The notes under the pieces: model-generated
What the model was told of the DNA's origin: nothing
Databases searched by the model: none
The model's input: only the letters and a program-made list of their open reading frames with translations
Shown: piece by piece, positions 4,151 to 14,380 of the stretch
Numbering within the stretch: the first letter of the stretch is position 1
Layout of the letters: every line of letters starts with the position of its first letter
Made by a program: the position numbers and the translations under genes
Assembly: GCA_963815095.1 (NCBI GenBank)
Contig: CAWFFH010000003.1
Location: 864,001-928,000 of the forward strand
DNA length: 64,000 bases
Direction of reading: 5' to 3'
Origin: Candidatus Bathyarchaeota archaeon
GTDB lineage: Archaea > Thermoproteota > Bathyarchaeia > Bathyarchaeales > Bathycorpusculaceae

Positions 4151-5029
4151 TTAGATTTTAAATAGTGATTCGCTGACTAATCTGGCGATATCATTTGGCT
4201 TCTCAGCAATCTTAACTCCAGCGGTTAAAAACGCTTCAATTTTGCTGTGTGCAGTACCTTGCTTACCCGTAATTATTGCTCCTGCATGTCCCATTCGTTT
4301 GCCAATTGGCGCAAATTTGCCAGCCACATAAGCTACAACAGGCTTAGGATAATGATTTTTAGCCAAGTATTCTGCGGTTTGCTCTTCCATATTGCCGCCG
4401 ATTTCGCCAATTAAAACCACAGCTTTTGTCTTTGCATCTTCTTTGAAAAGTTTCAATGCATCAATAAAATTCAAGCCAACCACAGGATCTCCCCCCACGC
4501 CAAAGCAGGTTGACTCTCCCAAACCTTTGACTTTTAGGCCAGCAGCTATTTCATAGGCTAAGGTGCCGCTTCTAGAGACCAAACCAACATCGCCTGGGCT
4601 AAAAATGTCGGAAGGCATTATGCCAAGTTTACACTCTGCGGGCGTAATGATTCCAGGCGTGTTTGGACCAATAATAGAAATGTTCGATTGAGCCGCGTTG
4701 GCGAGTATGTTTATTGAATCTTTTATTGGAATATGCTCAGTGATTACGACAATAGTTTTGATTTTGTTTGCAGTAGCTTCCAGTACTGCATCTTGAGTAT
4801 TTTTTGCAGGAACAAAAACGATCGAGGCATCAGGCGAATATGAATCAACTGCCTCTTCCACTGTATCGAAAACTGGCAGTCCCTCAATTGTATTCCCTCC
4901 CTTTCCGGGAGAGACGCCTGCTAATATTTTCGTGCCATAATCGAGCATTAGTTTAGTTTGGTAACTGCCTTGTTTTCCAGTGACTCCTTGAACAATTGCT
5001 CTTGTGCTTGCACCAATTAGAATTCCCAT
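4151..5029 (-). CDS. sucD: Succinyl-CoA synthetase alpha subunit
   Basis: VQGVTGKQG, IGPNTPG, SRSGTL, GGDP, RMGHAGA phospho-His motif. Confidence 0.96.
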   Translation of the reverse strand: MGILIGASTRAIVQGVTGKQGSYQTKLMLDYGTKILAGVSPGKGGNTIEGLPVFDTVEEAVDSYSPDASIVFVPAKNTQDAVLEATANKIKTIVVITEHIPIKDSINILANAAQSNISIIGPNTPGIITPAECKLGIMPSDIFSPGDVGLVSRSGTLAYEIAAGLKVKGLGESTCFGVGGDPVVGLNFIDALKLFKEDAKTKAVVLIGEIGGNMEEQTAEYLAKNHYPKPVVAYVAGKFAPIGKRMGHAGAIITGKQGTAHSKIEAFLTAGVKIAEKPNDIARLVSESLFKI

Positions 5030-6177
5030 TACTGTTTTGCTCCTTCCGCAAACTTTACCGCCTGTTTAGCTGCTTCTTCCATGCTATCCAAAGAAGTTAT
5101 TCCTGCGTCGGCGAGAATTTTTAGACCTTCCTTTTCGTTTGTTCCAACAAGCCTAACTGCCAAAGGCTTTTTGACCTTGACATCTTTGACGGCTTCAATT
5201 ATGCCTCTTGCAACCTCTTCACAACGAGTTATTCCGCCCAACACATTAACCAGTACAGATTTGGAATCTGGATCTTCAAGGACAATTCGAAGGGCAACTC
5301 TGATAGCTTCCACGTCTGCGCCGCCGCCGATATCTAAAAAATCTGCTGGTTTGCCTCCATAGTAATTTAGCAAATCAAGAGTTGCCATTACCAAGCCCGC
5401 GCCATTGCCAACTACGCCTATGTTACCGTCAAGTTTGACATAAGCCACCTTGTTCTTTAAAGCCAAAGTCTCCATCGACGAGAGCGCTTGAGGTTCTTTA
5501 AGCTCGTATTCGGGATGCCTAAAGAGGGCGTTGTCATCGATTATCATTCGAGCATCGGCAGCCACAAAACTCGTCGTCTCTGTCTCTATTAAGGGATTGA
5601 TTTCAGCCATTTCAGCATCGTTTTCTATGGCAGCTTGGTATAGTTTCTGTATGATACTTGATAATTCCGCAAGTTGATCGCCGCCATAACCTAATTTTTT
5701 CGCAATCGATAATGCATCAAAGGAACGAAATCCGGATTGAGCATCAACAGGGGCGCGGACGATGGCTTGCGGAGTTTTTTCTGATAATTCCTCAATATCC
5801 ATGCCACCCCTTTTAGAAGCTAACATAACATAGCAACGGTTGAATCTATCAACAGTAAAACCTGCGTACAGTTCTTTTTTGGCTGCAAGTTTTTCTTCTA
5901 TTAACACTTTCATAACGAGAACATTCTTTATTTTGGTTTCTAGAAGTCGGGTTACAGCATCTTGCGCATCATGGATTGAGTTGGCAGGAATTATCCCACC
6001 TGCTTTTCCTCTTCCGCTGACAGGAACCTGAGCCTTAATCATGTAAGGAGGCTTTAAGTTATTCAAAGCTGAAACGGTCTGATTGGAGTCAGAGATTAGA
6101 ATTCCCTTTGGAATCGGAATCCCATAATTATGCAGAATTTGCTTTGCTTCAAACTCACTTAAGTTCAAAATTATCAA
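5029..6177 (-). CDS. sucC: Succinyl-CoA synthetase beta subunit
   Basis: EFEAKQIL..YGIP, KAQV...GRGKAGG, EINPL, DDNALFRH, GNGAGLVMATLD. Confidence 0.96.
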   Translation of the reverse strand: MIILNLSEFEAKQILHNYGIPIPKGILISDSNQTVSALNNLKPPYMIKAQVPVSGRGKAGGIIPANSIHDAQDAVTRLLETKIKNVLVMKVLIEEKLAAKKELYAGFTVDRFNRCYVMLASKRGGMDIEELSEKTPQAIVRAPVDAQSGFRSFDALSIAKKLGYGGDQLAELSSIIQKLYQAAIENDAEMAEINPLIETETTSFVAADARMIIDDNALFRHPEYELKEPQALSSMETLALKNKVAYVKLDGNIGVVGNGAGLVMATLDLLNYYGGKPADFLDIGGGADVEAIRVALRIVLEDPDSKSVLVNVLGGITRCEEVARGIIEAVKDVKVKKPLAVRLVGTNEKEGLKILADAGITSLDSMEEAAKQAVKFAEGAKQ

Positions 6178-6313: not shown

Positions 6314-7099
6314 ATGAGTTGCAAAGAAAAAATGTATGTTTCCCAAATCAGGAGTACATCAGATGTCGATTTCGTGTTCCCTGCTGATTTTTCTTTCTTT
6401 GAACCTTATCTTAATTATCATATCAAAGAGATTCTTGAAATAGGCGGCGAAGCCTATGTGTCCCGAACCTCTGATGGTACTATTTCAGGTATTTTCATAT
6501 ACGACGACTTTGAGAAAGGAGGAACAATTTATTCAAAGTCACAAGAAGTTTTTGACTATTTTTATGGCTTAAAACAGTTCAATTTTCTCTTCTCAGAGCT
6601 GAAAACTGAACTCGAAAATGAAATCTATGACCTCTATACGGTAGATATTGAACATCTTGCCCTTGCTCATCGATTCAGCTATGAAATTTCAACGATAGAC
6701 AAGGGGCGCGAAGAAGAGATTGAGCGATTCATGGTTTTAACCCATCCAGGAATAAACAAGAAGTGGGTGAATGTTGCACTGAAAAACGGAGAAAAATGTT
6801 ACATTGTTAGGCTAAACAACGAAATTGCTGGGTTGGGTTGGGTCTCACTTGTCAATGGTATTGGAAGACTGCACTCGCTTTATGTGAAACCTCAATATCG
6901 AAGAATAGGCATGGGAGAAGATATCCTCAATGCGCGACTTCTCTGGCTCAAGTCAAACCATGCCCGTTCAGCATTCACTGAAATTTCATGCTATAACATC
7001 CCGTCTTCAAATAATGTCATGAAAGCGCAAATGAAGTTGTCTGGACAGGTTTACCAATATTTTAAAAAGAAACAAACAAAAAAGATTGATAATGTCTAG
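6314..7099 (+). CDS. GNAT N-acetyltransferase with an extra N-terminal domain
   Basis: C-terminal LHSLYVKPQYRRIGMG acetyl-CoA-binding motif A; N..S motif B. Confidence 0.85.
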   Translation: MSCKEKMYVSQIRSTSDVDFVFPADFSFFEPYLNYHIKEILEIGGEAYVSRTSDGTISGIFIYDDFEKGGTIYSKSQEVFDYFYGLKQFNFLFSELKTELENEIYDLYTVDIEHLALAHRFSYEISTIDKGREEEIERFMVLTHPGINKKWVNVALKNGEKCYIVRLNNEIAGLGWVSLVNGIGRLHSLYVKPQYRRIGMGEDILNARLLWLKSNHARSAFTEISCYNIPSSNNVMKAQMKLSGQVYQYFKKKQTKKIDNV

Positions 7100-8160
7100 G
7101 TTCTTGGTGCTCCGCAAATTGGACAGGTCTCAACTGTTGAATCTATTAGAGCTCCACAGTAGCGGCACTTAACCTTCACAACTTCCTTAATCACAATCTG
7201 CTGCACTGGCGGTTGCTTAGGAGTCAGATTGAAATTCTCTGGAGGAGGTCCTGGCGGAGGAGGCATCTGTTGGTAGGGATGTTGGGGAAGCGTTTTTCTT
7301 CCACTTCTTGAAATTGCCAAAATCAGAACTACGATAAAAACAACTGCTACGAGGAATATGGCTGCTCCGACAATGTAAGCAAGATTGGGAATTAGAATGG
7401 GTGTGGTTATTGTGATGCTTGCGGCTGGTGTGGGTGTTTCTACGTTTGTACTATTTGGGGAAGCAGCAGTTAATTGATAGCTAGTTGAAGTCACATACAG
7501 GTTTTCGGTGTAAGTGAACCCTGTTCCTGAAGGAGTGGTATCGTGTTCGTCATAGGTATATCCAACGATATATCCTGTGGATGGATCAAAGTAGACTTTC
7601 CATGTATAGGTGGCACTGAATTGTCCGTATATATCATTTCGCTCGTAACTCGACTGCCCTTGAGCAAAGATCACATTCACATTTCTGGTCTGAGAGGGCA
7701 AATAGTAGCTGTAATTTGTGGATATGACTGTCATCTCTGTGTTCAAAAGAGAAAAAGTACCGCCTACCGTGATTGAGTTATCCATAACGAACCAAACAGT
7801 CGGGTTAACATATCCAGTCTGATCATCAGTGCCGTTAACATAAAGAAAAGTTGTCGGTGAAAAGGTGAAGTCTCCAGACGGATTCCCAGTTTCTGTAGTA
7901 CCTGAGCTGTTACTCCATGAATAGGAATAACTATAGTGCGCAGATACAGTTCCATCGGTATTGACGCCATTTATTGTTTCTACTCCGTTATACGTAGCAT
8001 GTTCGGTGTAACCAGTGTAATCGCCGGTGCCGCTTCCAAGATCTGTAACTTCATAATAGCTGAAGTGATCTTCGACATGGGGGACATAAGCTGAGGCTAC
8101 AGGAGCGACAAAAAGACCTATGAACAGTAAAATTATAGCAAAAAAGTACTTTGAATTCAT
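7096..8160 (-). CDS. Type I membrane protein: signal peptide, beta-rich extracellular domain, TM, Pro-rich linker, C-terminal zinc ribbon
   Basis: Hydrophobic N-terminus ending ASA; Y/T/S/G-rich ectodomain; TM LAYIVGAAIFLVAVVFIVVLILAI; PPPPGPPP; CRYC..CPIC. Confidence 0.8.
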   Translation of the reverse strand: MNSKYFFAIILLFIGLFVAPVASAYVPHVEDHFSYYEVTDLGSGTGDYTGYTEHATYNGVETINGVNTDGTVSAHYSYSYSWSNSSGTTETGNPSGDFTFSPTTFLYVNGTDDQTGYVNPTVWFVMDNSITVGGTFSLLNTEMTVISTNYSYYLPSQTRNVNVIFAQGQSSYERNDIYGQFSATYTWKVYFDPSTGYIVGYTYDEHDTTPSGTGFTYTENLYVTSTSYQLTAASPNSTNVETPTPAASITITTPILIPNLAYIVGAAIFLVAVVFIVVLILAISRSGRKTLPQHPYQQMPPPPGPPPENFNLTPKQPPVQQIVIKEVVKVKCRYCGALIDSTVETCPICGAPRT

Positions 8161-9722
8161 CCCATGAAACCTCCTACACCATGAACATGGGCAGGATGAT
8201 ACCCGCCGATGCCGCTAAATGTTGAATGGTAAGATGAATGCGCAATGATCAAAGGCGCATAGTAGAAGAAGAATACGTTTCTTGGGACATAAGTGAACTG
8301 CACTGGAGTCTTCACAATAGTTGCGGTTGGATCAAGTTGCTTGACGAGTTCATTTCTTATTCCATGAATCATCCTAACTGCAAGACTTACCACTTCCGAT
8401 CGTTCAAGATCTCTAACATAAGATCCCAACAAAAAAGAGGCCTTTTCCATCAAATCAAGAATCTCATTAGCTTCAAGAGTTGAAATTGAAGCAAGTATTG
8501 CAGAAGCCACAAGAGGATACTCCAGATAATTTCTAAGCCCACTCTCAATTATTGTTAACTTCGACCTCACATTTTCTGGTCCCAAATCTGAAATCGCTAA
8601 ATAAGCTGAAGCAAGTTCGGTATCTTCTGATACCTCGAACCCCCAGGAATTGAAAAGCAATCGGAATGATTGGAACCTGCTAGCCAACTGGTCCATAGGT
8701 ACATTAAAAATAGCGAGTATTGCAGCTGACTCATACGAAGAAGTCATTTTGGAAAACTCCCCAAATCGGTCCGTTGGAAAAGTCCCATCATATCTACGCC
8801 CAAACAAGATAGTAGCAGCAACGCCTGCTGAAAGCGGATTTGGAACGTGCGCATCATGCCTAAGCTGGTGATCTAGTTTAGTTAAAGTTTCCGACAAGTT
8901 CTGAAGATCAGAATTTGTCGCTGTTTGAGAGGGATCTGCCCTAGATGAAGCCATAATTTCGCCTGCCATCATCTTATTTTCAAGAGTGCAATCAAAATGC
9001 TTGAGAAGATCGAGTGCAAAAAGAAATCTTTGACCAATTTGATTTGGGTCACCTTGAAGCTTAGCCAAACCTATCGATACGCTCCAGAGCTGAGAAAGAT
9101 CCATTTCTGGGAAACTAACTTTCAAATTAGATACATGATAGCTGCTTATCTCCGCTATGGACCGCAATTCGCCGAACGTACCCTGTATTTCTTCAACAAA
9201 TTCGGAAAATTCCTCATCAGAAACCCTGTAATTTCTCACGATAAGATCGTTTAGAATCATTACTCCAATACCAGTGAGGGACAAATATTTTCCGTCATAT
9301 GGTACCATCCTGTCAAGTTTCGATTTCTTTTTAATTAGCTCGTTAATCGCGTTTTCCCTTCCAATTACCTCAGCTTCCATTTTTGAGACTAGAATTTTTT
9401 CGCTTTCTACTTTATTCCTTTCATCTTCTTTCTTCTCTTTGTCTTCAAAAAGAAATGTTATTGAATGGGTTTTTTTCTCATCTTCTTGTAGAGCTGCCTT
9501 TGCGCTTCTGTCAGCGTTCTGAGCATTTACTAAATCTGTAGTCATCTGGGTCAAGTTTGAAAGTTCAGCAGCTGCATGATCATACTCTTCTTTTTCCATT
9601 ACAGAAAGATACTCTTTGCTGCTGAGAAAATCCAGGTCGGAAGATTGAATTTGCATCGAAACGGATTTTTGAGAAATTTGAGATAAGAACATCCTTATGT
9701 CGTTGCATTTCATTTCAATCAT
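8157..9722 (-). CDS. Hypothetical protein: coiled coil, helical repeats, Gly/His-rich C-terminal tail
   Basis: ORF with ATGA overlaps on both sides; charged heptad segment at about aa 45-135; repeated S.ESAAILA / ELASAYLA / PLVASAILA helices; tail SYHSTFSGIGGYHPAHVHGVGGFMG. Confidence 0.75.
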   Translation of the reverse strand: MIEMKCNDIRMFLSQISQKSVSMQIQSSDLDFLSSKEYLSVMEKEEYDHAAAELSNLTQMTTDLVNAQNADRSAKAALQEDEKKTHSITFLFEDKEKKEDERNKVESEKILVSKMEAEVIGRENAINELIKKKSKLDRMVPYDGKYLSLTGIGVMILNDLIVRNYRVSDEEFSEFVEEIQGTFGELRSIAEISSYHVSNLKVSFPEMDLSQLWSVSIGLAKLQGDPNQIGQRFLFALDLLKHFDCTLENKMMAGEIMASSRADPSQTATNSDLQNLSETLTKLDHQLRHDAHVPNPLSAGVAATILFGRRYDGTFPTDRFGEFSKMTSSYESAAILAIFNVPMDQLASRFQSFRLLFNSWGFEVSEDTELASAYLAISDLGPENVRSKLTIIESGLRNYLEYPLVASAILASISTLEANEILDLMEKASFLLGSYVRDLERSEVVSLAVRMIHGIRNELVKQLDPTATIVKTPVQFTYVPRNVFFFYYAPLIIAHSSYHSTFSGIGGYHPAHVHGVGGFMG

Positions 9723-10888
9723 CGATCCAAGATTGGAAATTCCTTTGTTAAACGCTTTTCTCCTAATATGTTACCTATTACAAGATTAAGGCTTTGTCCC
9801 TCACTTGCAAGGTCGACAACTTCATCATTCTTGAGAGCATCTTTGAGAAGATATTCGAACTGGCCTTGCCTATCGGAAGTATCTCCAAATCTTGCAGATT
9901 TTTCGCGTTCTATCTGCTCATAAGCGTACATAAATTCGTATAATGATCTGTATATCTGGTCGTCTATCTTTTCCGAGATTTTCTTTTCCTCAACAGTTAT
10001 CCATTCTAAGCCCTCAAGGTCAACGAAGAAAATTGTGCCGTCAGGAGCTAGAACTGCGTCCTTATCTAGCCAAACATCATAAAAGTCCAATCCACTGAAA
10101 GTTCCATCCCTGTTAGCTTTTAATGTCCTTACAAAGAGAGTAAGATATGCAATTCCGCTCTTAACGAAATTTCTCAGAAACTCTAATGCTTTATCGTTAT
10201 TGTCTAATTGAAACATGTTAAAAATTGATTTTATATTACTGCCGATTGTGCTCCCTGAATGAAAATAAATTCGGACATTGGACGGAACCAATCTTGTTTC
10301 CTGAACCATCCGCCCTCTGAATTTACGGTACCAATATATTTTTTTGATTTCAGCTTCTAGATCTTCAGGTAGGAAAACAATTTTCACGAGGGGTGCAATT
10401 CGGAACCCATAAATTGAGGTGAGGTCCGCCATTTCTGAGACTTTCATCGAAGTGGTTGCATGCTCAAGTCCCTGTCCCCCATAAGAGGAACCTCTTAACC
10501 ATAATTCCCCTGTTAAGTATCGGGGAGCTGTTTCTGCTGAATTTACAATTTTTTCTTTTAATTTGGAATCTTTTAGTAGACTACATATTTCATTTTTCCC
10601 CAAAAGCTGATGAGAAAAAGGATTGGTTGTTGAACCAATTCCTTTAACTGAAAGATAAAAGTCAGTGCCATCCATCTTTAAAGAAGGCAAAGGGCAAACT
10701 GCTCCTCTATTATCATCCGCAACAAACTCTTTAGTAGCTTGAGGGTTGAAATCTGTGAAAGGAGTCATACTTTCAGGAAGGTGAATTTTTTCGAATTCAT
10801 CCATTTTGAGTTCCTTAAAATGCCTGTTTGTTAGCATTTCAGAAACTTCATAAGTATTCAGATTGATGGGTGAGCCTTTCAACTTCAT
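9719..10888 (-). CDS. Divergent SelO/YdiU-like protein-kinase-fold enzyme
   Basis: DDNRG..DGT...LSVKGIGS..PFS, RLVPSNVRI and LDKD....DGT...DLEG line up in order with SelO GDGRG..DGT...LKGAG.TPYS, RVAPSHLRF and NTDN...G.T.DYG; ATG at 10888 preferred over upstream GTG at 10924. Confidence 0.6.
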   Translation of the reverse strand: MKLKGSPINLNTYEVSEMLTNRHFKELKMDEFEKIHLPESMTPFTDFNPQATKEFVADDNRGAVCPLPSLKMDGTDFYLSVKGIGSTTNPFSHQLLGKNEICSLLKDSKLKEKIVNSAETAPRYLTGELWLRGSSYGGQGLEHATTSMKVSEMADLTSIYGFRIAPLVKIVFLPEDLEAEIKKIYWYRKFRGRMVQETRLVPSNVRIYFHSGSTIGSNIKSIFNMFQLDNNDKALEFLRNFVKSGIAYLTLFVRTLKANRDGTFSGLDFYDVWLDKDAVLAPDGTIFFVDLEGLEWITVEEKKISEKIDDQIYRSLYEFMYAYEQIEREKSARFGDTSDRQGQFEYLLKDALKNDEVVDLASEGQSLNLVIGNILGEKRLTKEFPILDR

Positions 10889-11133
10889 TGGACGTTCGTT
10901 TTTTGTATGTGGATGGTTTAACACTTAAGCTTTTTGCGCAACGTACCAATCAGTGTAAGCCACCAGTCGTCTATCTTGATTGGGTTTTTGGCTTTACAAA
11001 GTCGTAAAGATATTGACCTGACTAATAGAATTATCGCTTACCACGCTTGTTTGATTCTTCTCTGACACCCAACAAGTGATCGGGCATAAGCATATAAACT
11101 GATTAAATAGTATGTGGATGAAACGGAGTAGAA

Positions 11134-11541
11134 TTGAAATTGGAATTATCACTAGAAGATGCAAAAAAGATTATACAGGATGCTGAAGCAAAGGCAAAAG
11201 AGATTGGCGTGAAAATGAACATTGCAGTAGCAGATGTTGGCGGGAACCTAGTTGCTTTTGAAAGAATGGATAATGCATGGATGGGCAGCATAAACATCGC
11301 CCAAAGCAAAGCTTTCACAGCAGTCGCCTTCAACATGACGACTGAAGATTTAGGCAAAGAATCTCAAGCTGGCAAATCGCTTTTCGGCATACACACAACA
11401 AATAATGGAAAAATAGTGATTTTTGGTGGCGGCATTCCTCTAACAAGAAAAGGAGTATTGGTCGGCGCAATCGGCGTAAGTGGAGGAGCTGTATCTCAAG
11501 ATATAGAAGTTGCAAAAGCCGGCGCAAAAAACTTCAAGTAA
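11134..11541 (+). CDS. GlcG/HbpS (PduO C-terminal-like) heme-binding protein
   Basis: IAVAD.GG.L.AF.RMD.A...SI.IA..KA.TA, GGG.P, GAIGVSGG...QD..VA. Confidence 0.9.
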   Translation: MKLELSLEDAKKIIQDAEAKAKEIGVKMNIAVADVGGNLVAFERMDNAWMGSINIAQSKAFTAVAFNMTTEDLGKESQAGKSLFGIHTTNNGKIVIFGGGIPLTRKGVLVGAIGVSGGAVSQDIEVAKAGAKNFK

Positions 11542-11575
11542 GAGGATTCCCAAAAACTTCTTTTTTTAATTAAGG

Positions 11576-12346
11576 ATGATCTACCTTTTGACAGAACCCA
11601 GCTTGACAAGAAAATGCGTTGCAGAGTTTATTGGAACATTCATTCTTGTTTATGTTGGAGCAGGAGCAGCTGCAATAACTATTCTACTCGCAAACGGAGA
11701 ATCATCTAAATCCATTTTCTTATCAAACGGCATAGGCGCTCTGGGAGGTTTAGCCGATTGGCTCTCCATCGGATTGGCTTTTGCCTTTGCAATCGCTGGA
11801 GCATTCTACATTTTTGGCCACATATCAGGTTGCCACATTAACCCAGCCGTAACCCTTGCGTTGTGGTCGGTGAAAAGGATGCCTGGAAGAGATGTTGCTC
11901 CCTACATTGTTTCCCAGTTAGCAGGCGCCACTATTGCAAGTATCTCCTTTGTTAGTATAGTTGGTGCTCGTGCAGCAACGATTGGAGGCAGTGGTGCAAC
12001 TGCGCTATTCCCAGGTATAAGCTATTTACAGGGGCTTTTTAATGAAATTGTGATTTCGTTTATTCTTATGCTTATTATCATGGCGTTAGCGGTTTATGAA
12101 CGAGGATCTAAACTTTTTTCCGGCTTAATCATTGGCTTAGTGGTAGCTGCGGGAATAACAACCACGGGCAATATTTCAGGTGCCTCTTTTAATCCTGCAA
12201 GAACTTTTGGGCCCTATGTTGCAAATTCCTTGTTTGGTGGACCAAACTTTTGGATTCAGTTTCCAATTTATGTTATTGGTCCGATATTTGGAGCATTGCT
12301 TGCAGCTTTTGTTTACACTTTCTTGACTGAAGTAAAGACAGATTAA
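11576..12346 (+). CDS. MIP-family aquaporin/glyceroporin (AqpM-like)
   Basis: AEFIGTFIL, SGCHINPAVT and GASFNPARTFGP NPA motifs. Confidence 0.95.
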   Translation: MIYLLTEPSLTRKCVAEFIGTFILVYVGAGAAAITILLANGESSKSIFLSNGIGALGGLADWLSIGLAFAFAIAGAFYIFGHISGCHINPAVTLALWSVKRMPGRDVAPYIVSQLAGATIASISFVSIVGARAATIGGSGATALFPGISYLQGLFNEIVISFILMLIIMALAVYERGSKLFSGLIIGLVVAAGITTTGNISGASFNPARTFGPYVANSLFGGPNFWIQFPIYVIGPIFGALLAAFVYTFLTEVKTD

Positions 12347-12386
12347 ATATCAATTTGTTTTACCATTTCTAGTTGAGCGTCACTGC

Positions 12387-13250
12387 TTAAATTCGCATAG
12401 CCTTCTTATTTATTGCTAAGATCAAATTTATGGCACCTGAAGAGCGAAAAATTGGGTATCGGAAGTCAGCGTATTTTTGCAGTTTAGTATGAATTTTAAA
12501 TGAATTCGCCTCAGAGAAAATAGGATGGTTGAAAAGCGTAATCGGTAAGAAACCAACTGTTCTACTTTGAACAGAGACAAGGCTGGTTTTAAGAAGATAT
12601 CGTTTGAACTGCTTTGCCGAATAAAAATTGGGACCTACTGACACAGATGTAATTGGACTTAACCATCCAAACTTTCGAAGTTGATCATTAACCACCCATC
12701 GAAGCAGTTGAGCTACATCTAATCTTGAACCCCATCGGGTATCAACACTTAAAATCGCATACCCCCCAGGCTTCAAAACTCTTGTAATCTCAGTCATAAC
12801 TTTTCTCAAATCATGAAGCCAATGAACAACACCCAAAGCAACAACTAATTCAAAGGTGTTATCTTCAAAGGTAAATTTATGTGCATCTTCAATACTACAA
12901 TGAACTAGTTTTTCCATACCGGCCAACTTGGCTACCTGTCGAGTTTGCTCAACCATCGCTGCAGCATGATCTACCGCATCCACATTAAACCCCTTTCGAG
13001 CTAGTGCAACTGACATTACTCCGCCGCCACAACCAACATCGAGAACCCGCGCACCTTTTTCTAAAGGCAACGCATCAACATAAGTAAGCCCGGCAATCTG
13101 CCTCTGTCTCAAAATATGCGTGAGCAAAGTATTCTTCCCGTAAATATCACTCCAAAATTCCGACTCAGCATTAAAGCGATCATCTATTCTGTCCTGAATA
13201 TCAAAATGACCAAATTCAGACGAAGACTTACCGACAACCATGCCTGTCAA
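12387..13250 (-). CDS. Class I SAM-dependent methyltransferase
   Basis: VLDVGCGGG motif I, FEDNTFELV, RVLKPGG. Confidence 0.9.
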   Translation of the reverse strand: MTGMVVGKSSSEFGHFDIQDRIDDRFNAESEFWSDIYGKNTLLTHILRQRQIAGLTYVDALPLEKGARVLDVGCGGGVMSVALARKGFNVDAVDHAAAMVEQTRQVAKLAGMEKLVHCSIEDAHKFTFEDNTFELVVALGVVHWLHDLRKVMTEITRVLKPGGYAILSVDTRWGSRLDVAQLLRWVVNDQLRKFGWLSPITSVSVGPNFYSAKQFKRYLLKTSLVSVQSRTVGFLPITLFNHPIFSEANSFKIHTKLQKYADFRYPIFRSSGAINLILAINKKAMRI

Positions 13251-13252
13251 AC

Positions 13253-14380
13253 CTACTCGCTAAACACCAACGAACAAATAGACTTAACGATCCGATCTGT
13301 AGCATGTGGAGCTTCATCAACGTATTCGCTAATCAGTTCTTGTCTACTGGTATTTTCACCACAAAAGCTGTCCTTTGCTTGACCTACTGCCCAAATTACT
13401 TGTTCCGGAGAGGAAATGGTAACACAGGCTTCTCTAAGAAGCGTTAATTTATTGAGGTTACTGACAACCTCGTCGTTGTGTTTTTTCAGATCAAGAAAAA
13501 CTGCGGGTTTGTTGAGAGTAAGGTATTCAAGAATAAGTGAGCCATAATCCGCAATTAAAACGTCCGCCAAGTGCAGATATGGATAGATGTCATTATCATG
13601 CACAATCTGAAAGTTTTGCTTGTCAGCAAACTTTTCGAATTGGTTATAGTTTTGTGCTTGCGAAGAGTGCAAACCAAAATTAGAATTATCATGCATTTTT
13701 AACAGGACATTTGCTTCTAAAGAAAGTAACCGCTCAACTATTTTTGTTCCAAACGTTTCAAGGCAACCATGACTCCCCCAAGTGGGAGCAAACAGAATCA
13801 CAGGCAAATCATTATCGATGTTTAACCTCTCCTTCAACGAACTGTCGTTATATTGCCCGCTGGTTAGCTCTTCCAAGCGAGGAAATCCACCGTACTCAAA
13901 GTTTTCCCTAAATTCATCATCAAACAATTCGTTAAGCCGATCAAGCTGCTTTTTTGAAGAGAAAAATATTCTATCATATGATTTTATGATATCACGTAAC
14001 CGTTCCTTATCGTCCTCAAATAGATATTTTTTCTCGCTTATACCATGAGAAATCAAAACCATCTTTGGCTTTCTTAAAAGGGGAAACTTAATCGGCAGAA
14101 ATCTAAAGACCATGTTGCTCATTAACCGAGGCTCGAAAACATCAGCAGAAATATACAAATCCCACTTCATTAAGAATGCATTTCTTTTCTCAACAAATTG
14201 CACACTGGGAATCCCGAATTGTTCATAAAAATTATAGTCATTAATTGAGTTCATGAAATAAATATCAAAAATTCCACATTGTTTTAGACGATTATAGATT
14301 GGCTTAAAGACCATAAATTGTATAGGGGTTATTCCGTTGAAGAGTACGCGTTTTCTGGGATGTGTTAGGTTGGGTAGCAT
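13253..14380 (-). CDS. CDP-glycerol:poly(glycerophosphate) glycerophosphotransferase family protein (TagB/TagF-like)
   Basis: HG..K, GFPR.E, ILFAPTW, K.H, ADVLIADYGS...EY. Confidence 0.8.
   Translation of the reverse strand: MLPNLTHPRKRVLFNGITPIQFMVFKPIYNRLKQCGIFDIYFMNSINDYNFYEQFGIPSVQFVEKRNAFLMKWDLYISADVFEPRLMSNMVFRFLPIKFPLLRKPKMVLISHGISEKKYLFEDDKERLRDIIKSYDRIFFSSKKQLDRLNELFDDEFRENFEYGGFPRLEELTSGQYNDSSLKERLNIDNDLPVILFAPTWGSHGCLETFGTKIVERLLSLEANVLLKMHDNSNFGLHSSQAQNYNQFEKFADKQNFQIVHDNDIYPYLHLADVLIADYGSLILEYLTLNKPAVFLDLKKHNDEVVSNLNKLTLLREACVTISSPEQVIWAVGQAKDSFCGENTSRQELISEYVDEAPHATDRIVKSICSLVFSE

Follow-up and report, generated by a model that had tools for sequence, protein, structure and literature searches.

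Do four closely packed archaeal genes, which the initial annotation described as an uncharacterised operon built around a divergent SelO-like kinase-fold enzyme, form a single system, and what would such a system do? The genes lie at positions 6314 to 10,924 of a 64,000-nucleotide stretch of DNA from Candidatus Bathyarchaeota archaeon (GenBank assembly GCA_963815095.1, contig CAWFFH010000003.1, positions 864,001 to 928,000 of the forward strand), hereafter called the window. The source genome measures 2.69 Mb and is 98% complete, and the relatives of gene 1 are labelled Candidatus Bathyarchaeia or Bathyarchaeota. Gene 1 (9719..10888, minus strand, probable extent) encodes a predicted protein-kinase-like (SelO-fold) enzyme of 389 amino acids (aa), a putative transferase of AMP or another nucleoside monophosphate (NMP). 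Gene 2 (8157..9722, minus strand) is an open reading frame (ORF) of 521 aa for a coiled-coil and helical-repeat protein with a conserved C-terminal tail, and gene 3 (7096..8160, minus strand; 354 aa) encodes a type-I membrane protein. The fourth gene (6314..7099, plus strand; 261 aa) encodes a GNAT protein. We find that the four genes function as one unit, made up of four proteins or, where two of them are fused, of three. We tentatively propose that they build a membrane-tethered modification machine whose two enzymes, an NMP-transferase with the SelO fold and the GNAT, have the gene 2 tail as their target.

The unity of the block is evident from its conservation. Two sets of loci were compared: the best 80 of 267 confirmed relatives in named genomes, retrieved with an 11-sequence subset of gene 1 as seed, and the best 80 of 503 metagenome loci, retrieved with a profile of distant relatives. 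All four genes are present in 70 of the 80 genome loci and in 44 of the 80 metagenome loci, and together with a natural fusion of gene 3 and the GNAT described below this bears out the co-occurrence that the initial annotation had expected. Nine of the ten incomplete genome loci end at a contig edge. In the tenth (L033), the one genome locus that is incomplete although it has room for the module, an IS110-family transposase (L033:4585-5415, minus strand; PF01548, 41.7 bits) interrupts gene 3 after ~110 residues. A reading of the coordinates of the other 36 metagenome loci traced the gaps to contig ends or, in L102, L116, L117 and probably L163, to an ORF of gene 2 size that has diverged beyond the reach of the archaeal hidden Markov model (HMM); this ORF has a His/Tyr/Gly-rich tail and a terminal Gly in the first three loci and runs off the contig in L163. 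The genes occur in three arrangements: arrangement A, the order of the window (46+26 loci, the 46 being genome loci), arrangement B, with gene 2, gene 3, gene 1 and the GNAT on one strand (24 genome loci), and a fused arrangement (17 loci). The block GNAT-gene 3-gene 2-gene 1 is intact in four genomes of the same genus, at one locus (L008) without the adjacent succinyl-CoA synthetase genes (SucCD). No fifth conserved gene was found, the commonest flank family occurring in 21 of the 160 loci, mostly in near-identical relatives, and the same flank-family comparison revealed no conserved mobile, defence, exporter, siderophore, regulator or transcription-factor neighbours.

Presence and absence follow the same rule at the level of whole genomes. 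Full-length copies of all four genes are found in exactly the same five of 41 related genomes (G000, G001, G015, G019 and G022), and the extra gene 3 matches among the 41 concern its generic ribbon tail only. The five belong to the 25 genomes of the genus, while the 16 genomes from other families of the order have none; within 12 kb upstream of SucCD in G018, none of the four genes is present. Since a gene 1 profile matched G000 alone among 401 genomes drawn evenly from the phylum, the module is rare. In a maximum-likelihood tree built quickly from 141 sequences of gene 1, whose long branches leave the deep joins unsure, a fused lineage (15 rows, SH-aLRT 98) stands beside an unfused lineage (125 rows, support 100) that comprises Thermoplasmata clades, an arrangement-B clade (28 rows, mostly with Nitrososphaerota labels) and a Bathyarchaeia clade (82 rows). 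The tree broadly matches the taxon labels, and gene 1 identity is 73-93% across Bathyarchaeia. By their labels and record titles, the hosts are uncultured Bathyarchaeia, Nitrososphaerota that are not of the ammonia-oxidiser type, and Thermoplasmata, from peat, bog, palsa and soil.

A distribution as patchy as this, together with the compact and self-contained character of the multi-gene block, would suit an anti-virus defence or abortive-infection system made of a membrane sensor and two modifying effectors. We nevertheless regard this as a remote prospect. A search for known defence systems with PADLOC-DB 2.0, a library dated 2023 and centred on phages and bacteria, matched no family at E <= 1 for any of the four proteins. 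The flanks are of housekeeping type (SucCD, an HbpS-like protein, a MIP-family channel and a methyltransferase) and hold no conserved mobile or defence genes, and the strong conservation of the proteins and the taxon-like tree of gene 1 also speak against it. Among the functions that the initial annotation had offered, defence looks the least likely.

The strongest evidence for the place of the GNAT comes from the 17 metagenome loci of the fused arrangement, which represent a deep sister lineage. There a single ORF of ~510-640 aa directly upstream of gene 1 matches positions ~8-235 of the gene 3 HMM, continues through a transmembrane (TM) segment and then matches the whole GNAT HMM (~6-252), including its N-terminal half; the GNAT part clears the Pfam cut-off at 44-55 bits. 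The GNAT thus stands in the place of the Pro-rich linker and zinc ribbon of gene 3, which argues that the GNAT belongs to the module and has its place of action on the cytoplasmic side of the membrane. A bacterial origin was considered for this mostly high-GC lineage and dropped, its only named relative being labelled Thermoplasmata and its flanks (UvrAB, PckA, a histidine kinase, a PhoU-AbrB protein and DtxR) being non-decisive. PhoU-AbrB fusions are common in archaea. No tRNAs were found in the fused-lineage loci.

Gene 3 itself runs from an N-terminal signal or anchor through a beta-rich ectodomain, a TM segment and a Pro-rich linker to a Cys4 zinc ribbon. The ectodomain (7396..8088, minus strand) spans residues ~25-255, about 230 in all, is rich in Tyr, Ser, Thr and Gly, and is specific to the family, with invariant acidic and aromatic positions in its alignment (A5). 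It has no PDB sequence relative and belongs to no named family, and its matches in the ESM Atlas score at most 0.84 and serve as leads only. The TM segment (7318..7374, minus strand; residues ~263-281) reaches a maximum 19-residue hydropathy of 3.43, and the C-terminus is predicted to be cytoplasmic because basic residues follow the segment. The CxxC-x(n)-CxxC ribbon (7108..7176, minus strand; residues ~329-351) resembles Pfam Zn_ribbon_3, with Pfam matches below threshold (23.9 versus 27 bits); the Cys4 pattern is kept in 53 of 58 family members, whose Pro-rich linkers have a median of 22% Pro. Many ORFs of ~50-220 aa elsewhere in the genomes share only the linker and ribbon of gene 3, at E 1e-4 to 1e-7 (for example G000:C7:40303-40494 and G000:C3:758148-758258, with others in G001, G007, G009-G011, G021 and G022). 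These matches suggest that small archaeal proteins, of which several have ~190-220 aa, repeatedly carry the ribbon tail as a module.

The GNAT protein consists of an N-terminal half (residues ~1-130) and an acetyl-CoA-type GNAT domain (residues ~150-255), which matches Acetyltransf_1 (PF00583) with 30.1 bits against a cut-off of 20.7, as well as Acetyltransf_7, Acetyltransf_10 and similar models. The N-terminal ~130 residues are conserved and match nothing. In the PDB its profile is closest to RimI (9mto, 1.6e-10), to 1yr0 (3.6e-10), and to phosphinothricin/YncA acetyltransferases and archaeal NATs, all matches falling within profile positions ~116-253. The loop that binds the CoA pyrophosphate, R/Q-x-x-G-x-G/A, is present in 60 of 68 family members. 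The protein therefore resembles the RimI/NAT protein N-alpha-acetyltransferases and the phosphinothricin/YncA N-acetyltransferases, which are its nearest PDB sequences and whose CoA loop it keeps, but differs from both in its unmatched N-terminal half and in its obligate, and in one lineage covalent, link to a membrane ectodomain and TM segment. One orthologue (G001:C4:399173-399934) contains a single in-frame TAG, which could reflect a pseudogene, a sequencing error or read-through.

What kind of enzyme is encoded by gene 1? Its sequence has no match in Pfam (E <= 1), NCBIfam or PADLOC, and none to PDB sequences, even with a profile search. An exhaustive HMMER scan describes a compact orphan family of 118 representatives at 50% clustering, and none of 39 diverse members matches any Pfam model. 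The AlphaFold2 model, built on an alignment of those 39 sequences (A1), is very confident (pLDDT 92.9, pTM 0.91). In a Foldseek search of the PDB with this model, YdiU/SelO entries rank at the top (E 2.9e-4 to 4e-3, probability 0.93-1.00), followed by NIS synthetases and then by protein kinases. A second, independent structural search, carried out all-against-all over 48,161 chains and scored by Z, placed Pseudomonas syringae SelO first (Z 14.3; root mean square deviation 4.0 over 263 residues), ahead of SbnC (Z 12.6), AcsD (Z 12.5), AsbB (Z 10.4), IucA (Z 10.3) and the best ordinary kinase (Z 9.6). On the evidence of its model, gene 1 is thus a protein with a protein-kinase-like fold and with SelO as its closest structural match, so that the fold named in the initial annotation survived the Foldseek check. 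SelO/YdiU proteins (PF02696, UPF0061) are protein AMPylases or UMPylases with a kinase-like fold and a flipped ATP, and NIS synthetases adenylate carboxylates; both classes, which are the nearest solved neighbours of gene 1 (the AMPylase SelO first, the NIS synthetases second), direct their attack at the alpha-phosphate of ATP.

In the gene 1 alignment A1, numbered after the 389-aa protein, R61, R199, R206, D277 and D290 are present in 39 of 39 sequences, K82 in 38 and E128 in 31, and the column counts outline a putative active-site region (K82, E128, R199, R206, D277 and D290; 10019..10645, minus strand) that fits an active enzyme. The SelO site described in section 3.1.1 of PMC8097203 consists of K113 (the beta3 Lys), E136, the Arg pair R176 and R183, which holds the gamma-phosphate of the flipped ATP, and N253 and D262, the Asn and the DFG Asp that serve the metal. 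The spacing is R199-x6-R206, +71 to D277 and +13 to D290 in gene 1, compared with R176-x6-R183, +70 to N253 and +9 to D262 in the SelO of that section. One could still take gene 1 for an ordinary kinase of proteins or small molecules, or else for a pseudokinase scaffold without activity, whose likeness to SelO reflects no more than a shared kinase core. This is very unlikely, because SelO scores ~4.7 Z units above the best ordinary kinase, the four matches that follow it are alpha-phosphate-attacking NIS synthetases, the Arg pair is invariant with SelO-like spacing, and the invariant K/D/D residues argue against an inactive scaffold.

The likeness to NIS synthetases raises another alternative, namely that the module makes or tailors a small, metallophore-like molecule. 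In such a pathway gene 1 would adenylate a carboxylate and condense it with an amine in the manner of an NIS enzyme, the GNAT would acylate the amine as in the aerobactin and desferrioxamine pathways, and the His-rich tail of gene 2 and the ectodomain of gene 3 would handle the metal or the product. We consider this quite improbable. Compared with the NIS synthetases (the IucA/IucC proteins AcsD, SbnC, AsbB, IucA and DesD, and the GNAT-NIS fusion DfoC), gene 1 spans only the core: it has 389 aa, while the NIS chains in the structural search have 548-595 residues, and neither a Pfam IucA/IucC match, the three-domain architecture of ~550-600 aa nor a siderophore-pathway context was found for it. 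Hydroxylase, decarboxylase, exporter and receptor genes are not conserved nearby and, to our knowledge, pathways of the NIS type do not usually include a coiled-coil protein of 521 aa or a type-I membrane protein.

The candidate for the protein acted upon is gene 2. Its AlphaFold2 model (pLDDT 81.3, pTM 0.73) contains a small N-terminal domain, an antiparallel coiled-coil hairpin (9312..9593, minus strand; residues ~44-137, about 90 residues), a helical-repeat, alpha/alpha toroid-like domain (8367..9272, minus strand; residues ~151-452, from the model and Foldseek) and a 65-residue tail (8160..8354, minus strand; residues ~457-521) with a hydrophobic stretch, the pattern H-x14-H-P-A-H-x-H and a terminal Gly. 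The best Foldseek matches of the helical domain are designed alpha/alpha toroids (8c3w, probability 1.00, E 0.023, target-normalised TM-score (TMt) 0.49; 9gvf, TMt 0.55); nothing in the Foldseek search of the model reaches E <= 0.001, and no natural protein is among the leading matches. A second structural search (VIA) with the gene 2 model returned a list filled by generic coiled-coil hairpins. The sequence has no Pfam, NCBIfam or PADLOC family and no PDB sequence or profile match, and in the ESM Atlas only its own family was found. The parts that had been read from the sequences of gene 2, gene 3 and the GNAT nevertheless held up: the model confirms the coiled coil, helical repeats and His/Gly tail of gene 2, hydropathy, Pfam and motif counts agree with the N-terminal signal or anchor, TM segment, Pro-rich linker and ribbon of gene 3, and the Pfam score supports the identity of the GNAT.

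The tail is predicted with a pLDDT below 50, yet it is near-invariant and forms the best-conserved part of the 521-aa protein in the alignment. A terminal Gly is found in 58 of 61 archaeal gene 2 proteins, and H-P-[AGV]-H-x-H occurs within the last 40 residues of 56 of them. In the fused lineage, 17 of the 17 complete gene 2 proteins end in Gly, most of them with F-H...H-P-V-H-x-H-Y-x-Y-G. The three exceptions to the terminal Gly (L064, L069 and L073) form one clade in the gene 1 tree, in which the tail is a separate gene. Here the body of gene 2 stops at TAA or TAG after '...IYGQ', and an ORF of ~127-130 codons follows in the same frame (L064:7273-7662, L069:6645-7025 and L073:6634-7017). The product of this ORF has a CxxC...CxxC ribbon and a linker ahead of the hydrophobic stretch and the His/Gly tail; by its sequence, the ORF probably starts at a conserved TTG. 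Recoding at the in-frame stops was considered and rejected, since the stops are TAA, TAA and TAG and each is followed by the conserved TTG. The occurrence of the tail as a gene of its own shows it to be an autonomous module. The detached tail bears a ribbon of the gene 3 type, and the fused lineage is without that ribbon once gene 3 has joined the GNAT; we infer that the ribbon may be a docking handle for the enzymatic partners. Downstream of the split-tail gene in L064, at ~7700-8000, a short ORF combines a TM-like stretch with a further CxxC...CxxC ribbon; the gene 3 ectodomain was not detected in it, and it may be a minimal gene 3 without ectodomain.

The tail also bears on whether the module is a transmembrane signalling device. 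In that case the ectodomain of gene 3 would sense an external ligand and control the cytoplasmic GNAT and the SelO-fold enzyme, which would modify other cellular proteins by acetylation and by AMPylation, as SelO does in redox stress, and gene 2 would be a scaffold or adaptor with its tail as a membrane or metal anchor. The initial annotation had inferred a sensor of this type. The receptor-like topology of gene 3 and the invariant acidic and aromatic positions of its ectodomain are in keeping with this idea, as is the fused lineage, which puts an enzymatic domain directly behind the TM segment as in receptor enzymes, and SelO-type enzymes have many substrates according to a portion of PMC8097203. 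It would leave unexplained, though, why the tail is the most conserved element of gene 2 and is kept as a ribbon-bearing gene of its own when split, and nearby genes that could serve as output, such as response regulators or transcription factors, are not conserved. We therefore hold signalling to be unlikely, and the scaffold role of gene 2 that goes with it equally so, although both deserve to be taken seriously.

We propose instead, with due caution, that the two enzymes converge on the tail. What gene 1 transfers would be AMP or a different NMP and not phosphate, with a side chain as acceptor as in SelO; alternatively, gene 1 would adenylate a carboxylate like an NIS synthetase. Gene 3 would hold the GNAT at the cytoplasmic face of the membrane, either through fusion or through its zinc ribbon, and the tail of gene 2 would be the substrate of both enzymes or an element through which a metal controls them. 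Chemically, this could mean that a side chain is nucleotidylated, or that the carboxylate of the terminal Gly is activated and then undergoes GNAT-fold-assisted transfer or acetylation.

A precedent for such a pairing exists in enterobacteria. MchC and MceJ are remote SelO homologues that form complexes with the HlyC-family acyltransferases MchD and MceI (PMC3281104, section 11). According to portions of PMC7472721 and PMC7680869, the MceJ/MceI pair links a siderophore moiety to the Ser/Gly-rich C-terminal region of microcins E492 and H47, at the carboxylate of the C-terminal serine, and a part of PMC8339906 describes the HlyC family as having the fold of the GNAT superfamily without its CoA-binding elements. 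By analogy, MceJ/MceI (MchC/MchD) appears to be the closest counterpart of the module: in both, a SelO-like protein is paired with a GNAT-superfamily transferase and a protein whose conserved C-terminal tail is rich in Gly or ends in it. The pairing is also strict in the module, where gene 1 and the GNAT occur together in every locus with room for both and have identical presence and absence across the 41 genomes. The comparison of gene 1 with MchC is one of fold and pairing. The initial annotation had picked up neither this precedent nor the special standing of the tail. In several respects the two systems differ. The acyltransferase of the module is a CoA-type GNAT (PF00583), while MceI belongs to the HlyC family (PF02794), for which Pfam scans of the GNAT gave no match; the candidate substrate, with its 521 aa, is cytoplasmic or membrane-associated rather than a small secreted bacteriocin; a type-I membrane protein takes the place of the exporter of the MceJ/MceI cluster; and the hosts are archaea rather than enterobacteria. 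Among the conserved neighbours in the 160 loci there are no genes for a microcin precursor, ABC exporter, siderophore tailoring or immunity.

Several observations weigh against a machine that acts on the tail. The tail may be no substrate at all, a role as metal site or as membrane anchor being equally plausible. The hydropathy of its hydrophobic stretch is 1.96-2.38 in the fused lineage, which is TM-level, and 1.33 in the window, which is below it; should the tail of the fused lineage span the membrane, its His cluster and its terminal Gly would be outside, beyond the reach of cytoplasmic enzymes. The GNAT is of the classical CoA type and nearest to RimI/NAT, unlike the HlyC-family MceI, so the pair may acetylate and AMPylate independently, and no microcin-like, exporter or siderophore genes stand beside the block in the flank families of the 160 loci. 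For gene 1, the TM-scores to SelO are low (0.3-0.42). PF02696 has no match over the whole source genome (the control was positive in 4 of 14 control genomes), canonical SelO was found in none of 201 genomes sampled from the phylum, and hhalign gives a probability of 4% between the gene 1 profile (A1) and Escherichia coli SelO. Gene 1 is thus, as far as its sequence tells, not a member of the SelO family, and because the sequence link is undetectable, the correspondence between the two sites is one of motif spacing only. It also has 389 aa where E. coli SelO has 478, an Asp where the second metal ligand of SelO is Asn, and no Cys near its C-terminus in the translation or the alignment, whereas a C-terminal redox Cys/Sec motif ([C/U]xx at the end) is a feature of SelO (PMC3281104). 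Finally, gene 1, unlike SelO, always occurs within a four-gene, membrane-linked module. Of the 'divergent SelO-like' enzyme of the initial annotation, the fold and the status of SelO as best structural match therefore remain, but membership by sequence does not.

A bolder variant of the proposed machine, which we judge improbable, is an as yet undescribed archaeal chemistry of C-terminal ligation or anchoring. Here gene 1 would adenylate the carboxylate of the invariant terminal Gly of gene 2, and the membrane-tethered GNAT-fold partner would couple the tail to an acceptor at the membrane, such as a lipid head group, gene 3 or a surface component. Gene 1 would thereby do for the tail what E1 does for ubiquitin-like proteins and what MceIJ does for microcin E492. 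Adenylation of a terminal Gly has its analogy in E1/ubiquitin-like and Atg8-type chemistry. If this variant were true, it would provide archaea of acid soils with a covalently anchored, metal-binding coiled-coil protein.

Together, our results describe a SelO-fold family that is an orphan by sequence and that is paired, in the manner of MceIJ, with new partners. The initial annotation knew no named system that the block matches, and none emerged: genes 1 and 2 are without a Pfam, NCBIfam or PADLOC match, and the literature within reach of our search, which excluded subscription papers and supplements, describes neither the gene 1 family nor the module; neither SelO nor GNAT is named in the passages searched of a preprint from 2026 that deals with new kinase-like families. 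SelO-type enzymes overturned the view that pseudokinases are inactive, and few branches and partners of the family are known. A sequence-orphan SelO-fold branch with three obligate partners, a Rosetta-stone fusion and a candidate substrate would make an archaeal SelO-like function testable. If the proposed machine is true, the logic of MceIJ, in which a kinase-fold and a GNAT-fold enzyme act on the C-terminus of a protein, would extend beyond a few enterobacterial bacteriocins. Since the module is restricted to archaea of peat, bog and soil, it may mark a habitat-specific adaptation, related to the envelope or to metals, in lineages important for carbon cycling.

All four ORFs appear in the ORF list at the coordinates first assigned to them. 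A direct reading of the junctions confirmed both the ATGA stop/start overlaps on the minus strand (9719-9722 and 8157-8160) and the overlapping stops of the GNAT and gene 3, two convergent genes: the plus strand reads CTAG at 7096-7099, so that the two TAG stops occupy one palindrome. The open frame of gene 1 extends to a GTG at 10924 (ORF 9719-10924, minus strand; 401 aa), but the gene probably starts at the internal ATG at 10888, because most homologues are 389 aa long and their start matches this ATG. The GC content of the block is an unremarkable 0.38-0.42. In a collection of 5.8 billion proteins gene 1 has 1341 relatives at E <= 0.001, gene 2 has 659 database relatives at the same threshold, and among the matches listed these are 60-90% identical. 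Given so many relatives, we take the ORFs to be real genes and not chance ORFs. Three short antisense ORFs of 81-85 aa lie within gene 2 on the plus strand (8238-8483, 8997-9254 and 9274-9522) and have tblastn matches in relatives; these matches are a by-product of the conservation of the coding strand of gene 2 and no evidence of genes.

Outside the block, SucD and SucC (succinyl-CoA synthetase; 4151-6177, minus strand) adjoin the GNAT gene, a neighbourhood that recurs in 12 of the 160 loci and in close Bathyarchaeia relatives only; SucC was not found at high identity in four of five near-complete genomes of the same genus that lack the module. On the other side of gene 1, positions 11134-14380 encode an HbpS-like (GlcG) protein, a MIP-family channel, a class I methyltransferase and a CDP-glycerol glycerophosphotransferase-like protein, and the HbpS-like and MIP genes recur beside the module only in L010. 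Beside one fused-type locus is the gene for a protein of 741 aa (L109:11787-14009, minus strand), one domain of which resembles an ice-binding protein (NF045625, with 217.7 bits short of the 400-bit cut-off).

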